A stretch of 24,423 bases of DNA, taken from contig CAZBML010000001.1 of NCBI GenBank assembly GCA_964493295.1, positions 4,078 to 28,500 of the forward strand, given 5' to 3'. The position numbers were made by a program, and so were the translations under genes. This DNA is from an uncultured Pseudomonadales bacterium (lineage in GTDB: Bacteria > Patescibacteriota > Microgenomatia > UBA1400 > UBA12108). Position 1 is the first letter of the stretch. Every line of letters begins with the position of its first letter. The notes beneath the pieces were generated by a model, which worked only from the letters and a program-made list of their open reading frames with translations, was not told the origin of the DNA and searched no databases. Of this stretch, positions 3,208-5,712 are shown piece by piece.

Positions 3208-5712
3208 ATGAAAAAAGCCAAAACTTACGTCCTAGGCATGTTCCCGTACCCCTCAGGTGAGGGTCTGCATGTTGGGCACGTGCGGATATTTACTGCGTGT
3301 GATGTGATGGCCCGCTACTTTAGGATGAAGGGGCAAGATGTCCTCTCCCCGATGGGGTGGGATGCGTTTGGACTGCCGGCGGAGAACGCGGCCATTAAGA
3401 ACAAAACCATCCCCCAGAAGATCGTGCCGCGTAACTACGGTAACTTTAAAAAACAAATGCAGAACTTGTCACTCTCTTTTGATTGGGAGCGCGAATTTGC
3501 GACTACTGATCCAGATTACTATGCCTTCACCCAGTGGATCTTTCTCCAACTTTATAATAAGAAAGATGATGATGGGAGACGGCTAGTATACCGAGAACAG
3601 GTGCCGATCAACTGGTGTCCCAAGTGTTTGACTGGACTGGCGAACGAAGAGGTTTTGGCGGACGGGACGCATGAGCGATGTGGGACGGTGGTAGGCAAAA
3701 AACTTTTGCCACAGTGGGTGATGAGGATCACCGCCTATGCCGAGCGACTGCTAAATGATCTGGACATGGATTTGACGGAGTATTTCGGACAATCAGAAAA
3801 CTCAGAGATCCAGAGAATCAGAGGGTCAGAGAGTCGGAAAGGGTTAGATTGGCCAACTGGTATTTTGGAGATGCAGAGGAACTGGATAGGGAAGAAGGAG
3901 GGAATGCGCCTTTTCCACAAAGTCGAGGGAATGGATTTGCAGTTAGACGCATTTTCTGCTTATCCTATCTGGTGTTTTGCCGATACATTTATGGTTATTG
4001 CACCAGAGCACCCATTGGTTAGTAGGTTGGTTGAGGGCACAGAATACGAAAAGACAGTAAAAGAATTTGTGGAGGAATCGAGTAAGATCACGGCGGAACA
4101 GCGAACAGAAGACAAATTTGAGAAAAAAGGAGTATTTACCGGGAGATATACAAATGATCCCTTTAACCCGGGCAAAAAATTACCTGTTTGGGTAGCTAAC
4201 TTTGCCATGATGGGCTTTGGTACTGGTATTATCCGTTGTTCATCTCATGATCCACGTGACTACGAATTTGCTCTTAAGTACAAAATAACCCTGAAAGAAG
4301 TGGTCGAGAGAACCGATCCGAAAGAACCAGTAAATGCCCATACCAATGAGGGAATACTAAAGGATTCTGGCGTGTTTAGCGGCAAGAGAATAAGTAAAGA
4401 AAGTATAGAAGCAGTAAAAGACTGGATCGAGAACGAGGGTATCGGGAAGAGAGAAACAACCTATCATTTGCGGGACTGGGTGTTTAGTAGACAAAGATAC
4501 TGGGGAGAACCGATACCACTCGTGTATTGTGAGAAGTGTGGAGACGAGAATGGAGTGGTCCCACTGTCAGAAGATCAACTTCCTTTAACCCTGCCCGAGC
4601 TTGAGAGTTATGAGCCGACCGAAACAGGCGAATCACCTTTGGCGAGAGTCAAAGATTGGGTGAGCACTAAATGCCCTCACTGTGGTGGTCGTGCAACACG
4701 AGAGACCGATACCATGCCCAACTGGGCGGGATCTTGCTGGTACTTTTTGGCGTTTGCCTTTTGGCATGGCTCAAATCCTAGATCTCAAATCCTAGACCCT
4801 AAACAAGTTCAAAATTCGAAAGCAAAAACAAATCGACCATACACCGATTGGTGGATGAAGATTGCTTTGCCGGAGATCAAAAAATGGTTGCCGGTCGAGT
4901 GGTACCTGGGCGGGGCAGAGCACGCAGTATTGCACCTTTTATATGCACGTTTCTGGGTGAAAGTGCTCCAGGATTTGGGACTCCTTGATTTCCCTGAGCC
5001 GTTTTTGCGTCTTAGGTCGGTGGGTCTTGTTTTGGCAGAAGATGGCAAGAAAATGAGTAAATCGCTTGGCAATGTGGTCAACCCAGATGATATGGTGGCC
5101 AAATATGGGAGTGATGCTACGCGGATGTATGAGATGTTTATGGGACCATGGGAACAATCAATTGCTTGGGACAGCGGAGCAATCAGTGGGCAAGTACGTT
5201 TCTTGGGGAGAATCAAGGATACGATCAATCAAAAGGGAAAACTGGGGGAGCAGACGACGGGATCTTTAGCGGCCAAACTCAAAGCTCTGGTTAACCGAGT
5301 CGAGGAGGGAGTGTTGAACCAAAAATTTAACACGAGTATCGCGGGGCTGATGGAGTTTGTAAATGCTTGGCGGGAACCTGGGATGGTATTGTCCAGGGAA
5401 CATTTAAACATTTTTGCGGCACTGCTTTCGCTGTTTGCTCCAGAGACAGCCAAGGAAATAGTACAAGGTACGGAACCTTGTAATTGGCCAGATGTGACAG
5501 GGATAGATGAGGGCAAAGAGACGATGGTCACGATCGCCGTGCAAGTCAGTGGGAAACTGAGGGGGACGATCGAAGTGAGTAAGCTGGAATCAGAAAACAA
5601 GGAGAAAGTAGTAGCTCTGGCGATGGAGGATGAGCGAGTGAAGAAGTGGGTAGTGGGAGAAGTCAAAAAGACTATATTTATACCTGGGAAATTGGTGAAT
5701 TTGGTGGTTTGA
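3208..5712 (+). CDS. leuS: Leucine--tRNA ligase (class I)
   Basis: MFPYPSG.GLHVGH (HIGH motif), MGWDAFGLPAENAAI, MQRNWIG, LRDW.FSRQRYWGEPIP, RETDTM, YLGGAEHAVLHLLYARFW, KMSKSLGN, and a C-terminal VQVSGKLRG ... PGKLVNLVV. Confidence 0.99.
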   Translation: MKKAKTYVLGMFPYPSGEGLHVGHVRIFTACDVMARYFRMKGQDVLSPMGWDAFGLPAENAAIKNKTIPQKIVPRNYGNFKKQMQNLSLSFDWEREFATTDPDYYAFTQWIFLQLYNKKDDDGRRLVYREQVPINWCPKCLTGLANEEVLADGTHERCGTVVGKKLLPQWVMRITAYAERLLNDLDMDLTEYFGQSENSEIQRIRGSESRKGLDWPTGILEMQRNWIGKKEGMRLFHKVEGMDLQLDAFSAYPIWCFADTFMVIAPEHPLVSRLVEGTEYEKTVKEFVEESSKITAEQRTEDKFEKKGVFTGRYTNDPFNPGKKLPVWVANFAMMGFGTGIIRCSSHDPRDYEFALKYKITLKEVVERTDPKEPVNAHTNEGILKDSGVFSGKRISKESIEAVKDWIENEGIGKRETTYHLRDWVFSRQRYWGEPIPLVYCEKCGDENGVVPLSEDQLPLTLPELESYEPTETGESPLARVKDWVSTKCPHCGGRATRETDTMPNWAGSCWYFLAFAFWHGSNPRSQILDPKQVQNSKAKTNRPYTDWWMKIALPEIKKWLPVEWYLGGAEHAVLHLLYARFWVKVLQDLGLLDFPEPFLRLRSVGLVLAEDGKKMSKSLGNVVNPDDMVAKYGSDATRMYEMFMGPWEQSIAWDSGAISGQVRFLGRIKDTINQKGKLGEQTTGSLAAKLKALVNRVEEGVLNQKFNTSIAGLMEFVNAWREPGMVLSREHLNIFAALLSLFAPETAKEIVQGTEPCNWPDVTGIDEGKETMVTIAVQVSGKLRGTIEVSKLESENKEKVVALAMEDERVKKWVVGEVKKTIFIPGKLVNLVV
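3793..3841 (+). repeat. Degenerate octamer tract inside leuS
   Basis: tcagaaaa c tcagagat ccagagaa tcagaggg tcagagag tcggaaag, encoding SENSEIQRIRGSESRK. Confidence 0.75.
4774..4821 (+). repeat. Heptamer-based 48-nt coding element in leuS (NPRSQILDPKQVQNSK)
   Basis: ctcaaat cctagat ctcaaat cctagac cctaaac...; 37/48 nt match the copy at 6098-6145 (counted by hand). Confidence 0.8.

Follow-up and report, generated by a model that had tools for sequence, protein, structure and literature searches.

What happens to a proofreading site when its signature peptide is rewritten? The question is raised by leuS, the gene for leucyl-tRNA synthetase (LeuRS), in a 24,423 nucleotide stretch of contig CAZBML010000001.1 (assembly GCA_964493295.1, positions 4,078 to 28,500), hereafter called the window, which comes from an uncultured, ultra-small bacterium of the candidate phyla radiation (CPR; Microgenomates). 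Editing by LeuRS, at which benzoxaborole drugs are aimed, is a classic example of quality control in translation. The pocket, composed of the TTRPDT peptide, the GTG loop and an Asp, is taken to be almost universal, and where it deviates the usual verdict is decay in a parasite. A sequence-only reading of the window had pointed out that TTRPDT is replaced by SAYPIW in the CP1 editing domain, and had proposed that the enzyme either lacks editing or has a re-specialised pocket. We report here that the gene encodes an intact bacterial-type LeuRS with a distinct, strictly conserved CP1 class, which we named SAYPxW, and that whole CP1 domains are exchanged between lineages independently of the catalytic core. 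Coordinates are given in Table 1.

The window LeuRS is a bacterial-type class Ia enzyme. It has both the HIGH-type and KMSKS signatures, matches the class I core families PF00133 and PF09334, and its closest solved structure is the LeuRS of T. thermophilus, over the full length (E-value 5.5e-163), followed by those of N. gonorrhoeae and E. coli. The LeuRS editing domain family PF13603 was matched by residues 224-407 (E-value 1.5e-42), over positions 1-184 of the 185 in the profile. The named homologues came from metagenome-assembled genomes (MAGs) of Microgenomates and Patescibacteria. The genome to which the window belongs (G000) has an assembly of 127 contigs that add up to 865 kb, with a completeness of 72%.

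The replacement of TTRPDT by SAYPIW was borne out. HMMER alignments with the T. thermophilus and E. coli enzymes were gapless over the threonine-rich (T-rich) peptide, with S250 facing T247, A251 T248, Y252 R249, P253 P250, I254 D251, and W255 T252, the specificity gate. Only the hydroxyl at position 247 and the proline at 250 survive from the canonical peptide. As the sequence-only reading had itself conceded, a shift in register could bring the Trp out of the pocket. Such a shift, placing A-D-T-F-M onto the P-D-T-F-M of E. coli and so preserving T252, was ruled out by HMMER, by MAFFT and by the predicted secondary structure, and the gapless register is anchored by F249, P253, F257 and T260, which are common to canonical sequences. 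We also modelled residues 215-425 with AlphaFold2, using a 69-sequence alignment (pLDDT 89.3, pTM 0.83). In the model, S250 lies at the end of a strand and W255 in a short helix before the next strand. In the S. pneumoniae CP1 structure, T247 is at a strand end and T252 in a short helix between two strands (PMC3747510), so that the model supports the register independently. A Foldseek search with this model gave TM scores of 0.79-0.85 against LeuRS CP1 domains, with a root-mean-square deviation of 2.1 Å to the isolated Aquifex and S. pneumoniae domains, and the top 50 matches were all LeuRS or LeuRS CP1 structures. Together with the profile match and the predicted fold, this identifies the domain as a LeuRS CP1.

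The second motif of the pocket, GTGIIRCSSHDPRD (residues 338-351, window 4219-4260), is present as had been described, with the catalytic Asp retained. What had to be refined is the alignment, because one residue is deleted. The deletion is best placed directly after the intact loop G338-T339-G340, as found with MAFFT and hmmalign and in keeping with the strand formed by residues 341-344 in the model. With the gap in this position, the pocket-facing residues M338 and V340 correspond to I342 and C344, and the other face of the strand has R343 where canonical enzymes have A339. An earlier assignment in which M338 was replaced by Arg came from the gap placement of phmmer; it was dropped, as a gap fits the loop and not the strand. 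D348 corresponds to D344. D351 is the counterpart of the universal Asp, numbered D347 in the T. thermophilus enzyme and D345 in that of E. coli, by which the alpha-amino group is anchored.

Compared with the canonical bacterial CP1 of known structure (T. thermophilus 1OBH, 1OBC and 2BTE; E. coli 4ARC and 4AQ7; S. pneumoniae 4K47; Aquifex 3PZ5 and 3O0A), the SAYPxW domain shares the fold, the insertion point, the linkers, GTG, H-D-x-R-D and the 247 hydroxyl. It differs by S-A-Y-P-I/A-W in the T-rich peptide, A-D instead of G255-A256, D317 instead of N, F337 instead of Y332, the deletion after GTG, I, R, C and S in place of M338, A339, V340 and P341, and the signature A-H-x-N in loop I4b. In S. 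pneumoniae CP1, residue T373 of this last loop touches the ligand, and the loop borders the pocket in solved structures (PMC3747510). As for the shared elements, the GTG loop binds adenine 76 (PMC3747510), and GTG, H-D-x-R-D and the 247 hydroxyl provide the contacts for adenosine 76, the scissile carbonyl and the alpha-amino group (PMC3747510, PMC7906584).

These changes do not occur by chance in a single gene, as the pattern recurs unchanged in dozens of homologues. The class can be defined by [ST]-A-[YF]-P-[IA]-W and A-D-[TS], then G-T-G, the deletion, and [IVA]-[IV]-R-[CS]-S-x-H-D-x-R-D. Of the 120 top-ranking homologues, 61 have a CP1 more than 53% identical to that of the window, and every one of these carries the SAYPxW motifs, which answers positively the question of whether SAYxxW is conserved. 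Across a non-redundant set of 69 CP1 sequences from this class, H237, A251, W255, A258, D259, D317, R343, S345 and H378 were invariant, and F337, I342 and C344 were 97-99% conserved; every one of these positions departs from the canonical consensus. Within the T-rich peptide, S/T, A, Y/F, P, A/I and W each reached 100%, and GTG and the equivalents of H343, D344, R346 and D347 are invariant. A pattern scan of 185,579 species genomes then gave 76 loci, including 71 full-length carriers spread patchily over CPR lineages. Although the median pairwise CP1 identity of these 71 carriers is only 57%, H237, A258, D259, D317, H378, D348 and D351, which lie outside the search pattern, were 100% conserved. 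The same figure was obtained for A251 and W255, and for R343 and S345, the latter two being part of the search pattern. In a subset of 37 class members (A2), invariant columns were concentrated in the pocket segments (T-rich peptide, GTG loop through helix alpha-2, loop I4b), with 23 of 42 columns against 24 of 149 elsewhere (Fisher p 1.3e-6, a value to be taken as indicative, since the segments come from the literature but were hand-picked). In 76% of within-class pairs, moreover, conservation was higher in CP1 than in the catalytic core. We conclude that SAYPxW is a conserved alternative design under strong purifying selection, and that its editing site is not in decay.

A reduced genome in which editing has simply decayed, leading to a statistical proteome, is accordingly a very unlikely explanation. 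The idea has some appeal, because the genome of this CPR bacterium is small (865 kb assembled, 72% complete) and degenerate editing sites are known in host-restricted bacteria (PMC7373986). It is however contradicted by the conservation data: pocket residues are invariant and do not drift, the universal Asp is retained, and the domain was acquired as a unit. The argument that a retained HDxRD speaks against simple decay therefore holds, now over some 70 diverged sequences with an invariant pocket. Other synthetases of G000 tell the same story. Its valyl-tRNA synthetase (ValRS) has canonical A-T-T-R-P-E-T and G-T-G-V-V-K-M-T-P-A-H-D-K-T-D motifs, a fragment of alanyl-tRNA synthetase (AlaRS) has canonical H-L-L-H and C-G-G-P-H, and threonyl-tRNA synthetase (ThrRS) canonical H-S-T-A-H and C-R-G-G-H. 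The isoleucyl-tRNA synthetase gene (IleRS; locus L069, contig C80) is cut at its 5' side by the contig end, upstream of the T-rich peptide; its second motif reads G-T-G-I-V-H-T-A-A-I-Y-G-E-D-D. E. coli IleRS has A-P-G-H-G-P-D-D at the equivalent site, and A-A-I-Y-G-E-D-D is, we presume, of the eukaryote-like type. With canonical motifs in ValRS, AlaRS and ThrRS, and one in IleRS that looks eukaryote-like, a loss of proofreading throughout the genome is not supported. The suggestion of a statistical proteome through general decay was thus not upheld, the more so as near-identical sister cores bear other CP1 types. A search with a CP1 query detected no second CP1-bearing gene, whether a LeuRS or a free-standing CP1, in G000 (72% complete) or in nine other carriers.

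The comparison with the known degenerate domains leads to the same view. Mycoplasma and mammalian mitochondrial LeuRS likewise belong to reduced genomes, have a T-rich peptide without the canonical threonines, and maybe face no endogenous norvaline. Their CP1 is described, as summarised in PMC7373986 and PMC10500172, as degenerate or absent, truncated, and deprived of catalytic residues. The SAYPxW domain, in contrast, is full length, has the universal Asp in place and evolves under strong purifying selection; its pocket positions are invariant, and enriched among the invariant columns.

The sequence-only reading had advised comparing the history of CP1 with that of the synthetic core to detect a domain swap, and this comparison was strongly positive. 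Many homologues shared 84-92% of residues with the window LeuRS over the N-terminal core and 70-83% over the C-terminal part, yet only 26-38% over CP1, and these carry other T-rich types (TTRxDT, TTTPV-N, TKFWET). Conversely, where the core of a SAYPxW protein is distant (46-54% C-terminal identity), its CP1 is still 60-67% identical. For species relationships we used GTDB group codes, which are independent of LeuRS. Family f1, that of the window, comprises five species genomes and four CP1 classes. Its member G437, of the same genus as the window, has TTRVDT, with a core 84-85% and a CP1 31% identical, and G417 and G427, which are members of one genus, have TTTPV-N and TKFWET respectively. 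In genus g48, G383 has SAYPxW and four other species the canonical TTRPDT, their cores being 72% and their CP1 28-30% identical; in genus g287, SAYPxW is found in G396 and TTAPV in G387. In a sample of 400 species of the taxonomic class, CP1 of the window type was present in nine genomes besides G000, from four families, with a single match in each (the tally includes the unpublished genome G068, on which no claim depends).

The limits of the exchanged segment were clear in the comparison with G437. Sliding protein identity was 13-15 out of 15 up to about residue 225, at most 6 out of 15 between about residues 231 and 405, and 15 out of 15 from residue 416. Nucleotide identity was 70-92% outside CP1 and 35-56% inside, with a peak of 88-92% at residues 421-450, just downstream of CP1. 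GC content at third codon positions was 0.42 in CP1, compared to 0.59 and 0.50 in the flanks. At the available divergences synonymous sites are saturated, nucleotide identity being 70-92% even in the core. In the upstream linker, W215, Q223, W226, G228 and G232 are invariant across all CP1 classes, and it is right after this linker that identity to G437 falls.

Phylogenies were in conflict accordingly. In the core tree (58 LeuRS), f1, f48 and g48 formed supported groups over which the CP1 classes were scattered. In the CP1 tree, SAYPxW (support 99), DSVPQT, TTWPHT and TTTPV each formed one clade, TTRxDT and TKFWET were split (5 and 3 changes), and SAYPxW, DSVPQT and TTWPHT fell in a common clade (support 98). 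Approximately unbiased (AU) tests rejected monophyly of SAYPxW on the core (p 5.7e-48), and monophyly of f1 (p 6.3e-6) and of g48 (p 3.4e-42) on CP1. With this conflict, breakpoints at about residues 228 and 412, and an independent contig over both junctions (see below), leuS is a mosaic gene. Horizontal transfer of the whole gene as the cause of patchiness was rejected for the cases tested, as cores track genus and family and CP1 does not. We concluded that the whole CP1 (residues 228-412, approximately) is exchanged between lineages independently of the catalytic core. The flanks of the segment are near-universal linker motifs, which makes homologous recombination the simplest mechanism; exchange most likely takes place in these two near-invariant linkers. 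A natural LeuRS made of domains with different histories is also known in Natrialba magadii, where a bacterial-type N-terminal region is joined to an archaeal-type tRNA-binding domain (PMC4005665). In that enzyme an inter-domain fusion took place long ago, at the tRNA-binding domain of the C-terminus, whereas here the editing domain alone is swapped, repeatedly, within genus or family.

Two additional segments of leuS were wholly unlike G437, at residues 186-210 (window 3763-3837), a segment shared with G427 (10 out of 15 identity), and at residues 511-545 (window 4738-4842). In the core tree, the families of the window's order occupied three separate well-supported parts, in which families of other orders were interspersed. 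Besides CP1 exchange, transfer of the whole leuS gene may have contributed, or a problem of rooting or taxonomy.

All genomes involved are MAGs, and the junctions lie in conserved sequence, where assemblers can change strain. A chimeric assembly, or mis-binning of a foreign CP1 onto a native core, was therefore considered. The leuS stretch was found in sequencing runs from several studies, and wastewater samples are among its sources. One of them, run X2, from a 2025 study and not the best holder, yielded a single contig of 2,383 nucleotides covering window positions 3208-4748 and both junctions, with 19 differences to the window (98.8% identity) and even depth. In addition, the 71-76 species genomes with this class were contributed by many studies, contigs of 0.6 and 1.0 Mb are among those that carry it, and every carrier has its own diverged CP1 sequence. 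An artefact is hardly credible in view of these data.

Table 1. Features of leuS in the window, and sister CP1 classes of CPR LeuRS.
Feature	Residues	Window position	Strand	Remarks
leuS, 834-aa bacterial-type LeuRS	 	3208..5712	+	single open reading frame; Pfam, HMMER against solved structures
HIGH-type signature HVGH	21-24	3268-3279	+	 
Upstream linker W-P-x-x-x-x-x-M-Q-R-N-W-I-G-K-x-E-G	215-232	3850..3903	+	left junction
CP1 cassette, SAYPxW class	~228-412	3889..4443	+	discordant with rest of gene
Rewritten T-rich peptide S250-A-Y-P-I-W255 (= T247-T-R-P-D-T252)	250-255	3955..3972	+	gapless HMMER alignments
A258-D259 (canonical G-A/V), class-specific, invariant	258-259	3979..3984	+	end of short helix bearing W255
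F337 (canonical Y332), GTG, one-residue deletion, strand I-I-R-C, S-S-H-D-P-R-D	 	4216..4260	+	 
A377, H378, N380, class-specific, invariant (T379 variable)	 	4336..4347	+	I4b loop
Downstream linker, including H-L-R-D-W-V-F-S-R-Q-R-Y-W-G	413-435	4444..4512	+	right junction
KMSKS signature	615-619	5050-5064	+	 
Class D-S-[VI]-P-Q-T	 	 	 	N, G or H at position 343
Class [ST]-[AT]-H-F-E-A ... A-D-T-F (SAHFEA)	 	 	 	K at position 343
Class T-T-W-P-H-T	 	 	 	further distinct class

SAYPxW is not the only alternative design, and at least six classes of CP1 pocket are in circulation in the LeuRS genes of CPR bacteria. Sister classes with the deletion after GTG and C-S-x-H-D-x-R-D were seen in the representative library and in genome samples (Table 1, last rows). 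The other classes of f1 (loci L039-L042, in G417, G427, G437 and G404) are also non-canonical, and each is conserved in many homologues. The TTRVDT class has G-V-P-[FQ]-[FY]-D-E-R-D, without the His of H-D, and its CP1 can be aligned over about 35 fewer positions; in TTTPV-N, position 252 is deleted. Over all classes seen, G-T-G, D344 and D347 were invariant or nearly so, H343 and R346 nearly so, and the hydroxyl at 247 was kept in all but one. Only in the SAYPxW and SAHFEA classes did D259 and D317 occur together with R or K at 343. This co-occurrence suggests a salt-bridge network between R343 and D259/D317, beside the helix that bears residue 255.

What might such a pocket do? The reading we favour, to which we would give an even chance, is that of a working CP1 module whose side-chain pocket is re-lined and which would hydrolyse a restricted or altered set of non-cognate aminoacyl-tRNA-Leu. 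According to this proposal, built on sequence comparison, GTG, H-D-x-R-D, the universal Asp and the 247 hydroxyl would still hold the 3' end of the charged tRNA. W255 would take the place of T252 as a tightened, leucine-excluding gate, and I342 and C344 would re-line the pocket in place of M338 and V340. The charge network of R343 with D259 and D317 would probably brace the short helix bearing W255. The substrates cleared would be a narrower or different set of mischarged tRNA-Leu, probably with small unbranched side chains. Activity is favoured by the strict retention of the 247 hydroxyl, GTG, H-D-x-R-D and the universal Asp, none of which is needed by a mere plug.

Several observations weigh against an active module. 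In a second explanation, CP1 is instead plugged and hydrolytically dead: the pocket would be filled by W255 and the R343-D259/D317 network, LeuRS would keep a folded CP1 to bind and release the tRNA 3' end in efficient aminoacylation and translocation, and Leu codons would be translated without post-transfer proofreading. In a canonical background, hydrolysis of mischarged tRNA is lost when residue 252 is bulky or charged, and the substitutions T252R and Y332D abolish editing by S. pneumoniae LeuRS (PMC3747510); in SAYPxW, however, the rest of the pocket has changed along with position 252 and is conserved. T248, R249 and the hydroxyl of Y332 are all gone in SAYPxW, being replaced by Ala, Tyr/Phe and Phe; T248 hydrogen-bonds the ribose 3'-OH in simulations (PMC7906584), and the Y332 hydroxyl binds the A76 phosphate (PMC3747510). 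W255, R343, D259 and D317 may leave no cavity at all. There is also a precedent, since mammalian mitochondrial LeuRS retains an inactive CP1 that aids aminoacylation, its loss of editing being tied to the absence of norvaline (PMC10500172), which is regarded as the physiological editing substrate of LeuRS (PMC10500172). No gene of the isopropylmalate/isocitrate dehydrogenase family (Iso_dh/LeuB) was detected in G000 or in the four other f1 genomes (95-99% complete), which is compatible with bacteria that make no leucine and, in consequence, no norvaline of their own. If leucine is not synthesised, there is maybe no norvaline, and selection for editing would be relaxed in these five genomes. 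Finally, strong conservation is evidence of selection, and not of which activity is selected. We nevertheless consider a plugged CP1, the main rival, less likely than an active module. It leaves unexplained the 100% retention of the 247 hydroxyl, GTG, H-D-x-R-D and the universal Asp over 71 species with a median CP1 identity of 57%, as well as a CP1 better conserved than the core in 76% of pairs, and the repeated replacement of other types by a dead domain would require a selective advantage.

Alternatively, it may be that diversity itself is selected. Classes would then be kept and exchanged because a natural inhibitor that, like benzoxaboroles, traps the tRNA 3' end, or a toxin from a competitor or host, targets the editing site, or because hosts supply different near-cognate amino acids, SAYPxW being a resistance or specificity allele. 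Changes at T252 or Y332 do make S. pneumoniae LeuRS insensitive to benzoxaboroles (PMC3747510). The classes, at least six in number, differ exactly at the ligand-lining positions on an invariant scaffold; different classes are found among species of one genus; and divergences of CP1 and core are weakly coupled (Spearman 0.26). On the other hand, we know of no natural inhibitor of the LeuRS editing site, and neutral shuffling of an autonomous domain between conserved anchors would produce equal patchiness. Selection for diversity appears unlikely.

An active module and an exchanged cassette can be joined in one scheme, which we put forward tentatively, as possible but not probable. CPR bacteria would share a pool of interchangeable LeuRS cassettes (SAYPxW, DSVPQT, SAHFEA, TTWPHT, TKFWET, TTTPV and canonical), each with a conserved pocket of its own and swapped by recombination at the linkers, so as to retune which amino acids are cleared or to evade an attacker of the editing site. 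In this pool, SAYPxW would be an active form with a new, Trp-gated specificity.

Degenerate LeuRS editing sites in reduced genomes (PMC7373986) and a haloarchaeal LeuRS chimera (PMC4005665) are already known. A literature search, whose reach did not extend to the survey of Melnikov et al. 2018, returned no account of conserved alternative CP1 pockets or of CP1 exchange in CPR bacteria. In these genomes the editing domain behaves as a mobile cassette, replaced between congeneric species, and the catalytic core follows the descent of the lineage. Should the variants differ in the substrates that they edit, they would constitute a natural experiment in the re-engineering of proofreading specificity, and would offer ready-made domain-swap chimeras on near-identical cores. 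If they are inactive, there is selection for abandoning Leu proofreading in specific lineages, other synthetases keeping theirs.

Two minor observations concern the rest of the protein. Some CPR LeuRS are longer than usual. The SAYPxW LeuRS P0114 (1044 aa) also contains PF06821 (Ser_hydrolase) and PF12697; the window protein has no passenger domain. Proteins of about 1,000-1,140 aa were also seen with canonical, DSVPQT, SAHFEA and TTWPHT pockets (L025, L021, L066, P0127, P0138, P0140, P0150 and P0155), and presumably contain inserted passenger domains, hydrolase domains having been demonstrated in P0114 only among LeuRS above 980 aa. As LeuRS above 980 aa occur in the canonical, SAHFEA, TTWPHT, DSVPQT and SAYPxW classes, length has no obvious link to pocket class. 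At the N-terminus (window 3208-3260), the window LeuRS starts some 30 residues later than that of T. thermophilus, its residue 4 aligning with residue 33, and only 4 in-frame codons lie upstream of the start. Close homologues share this start point, with the sequence M-x-K-x-K-T-Y-V-L-G-M-F-P-Y-P-S-G. From the late start and its recurrence in close homologues, it follows that this LeuRS family lacks the usual N-terminal helix.

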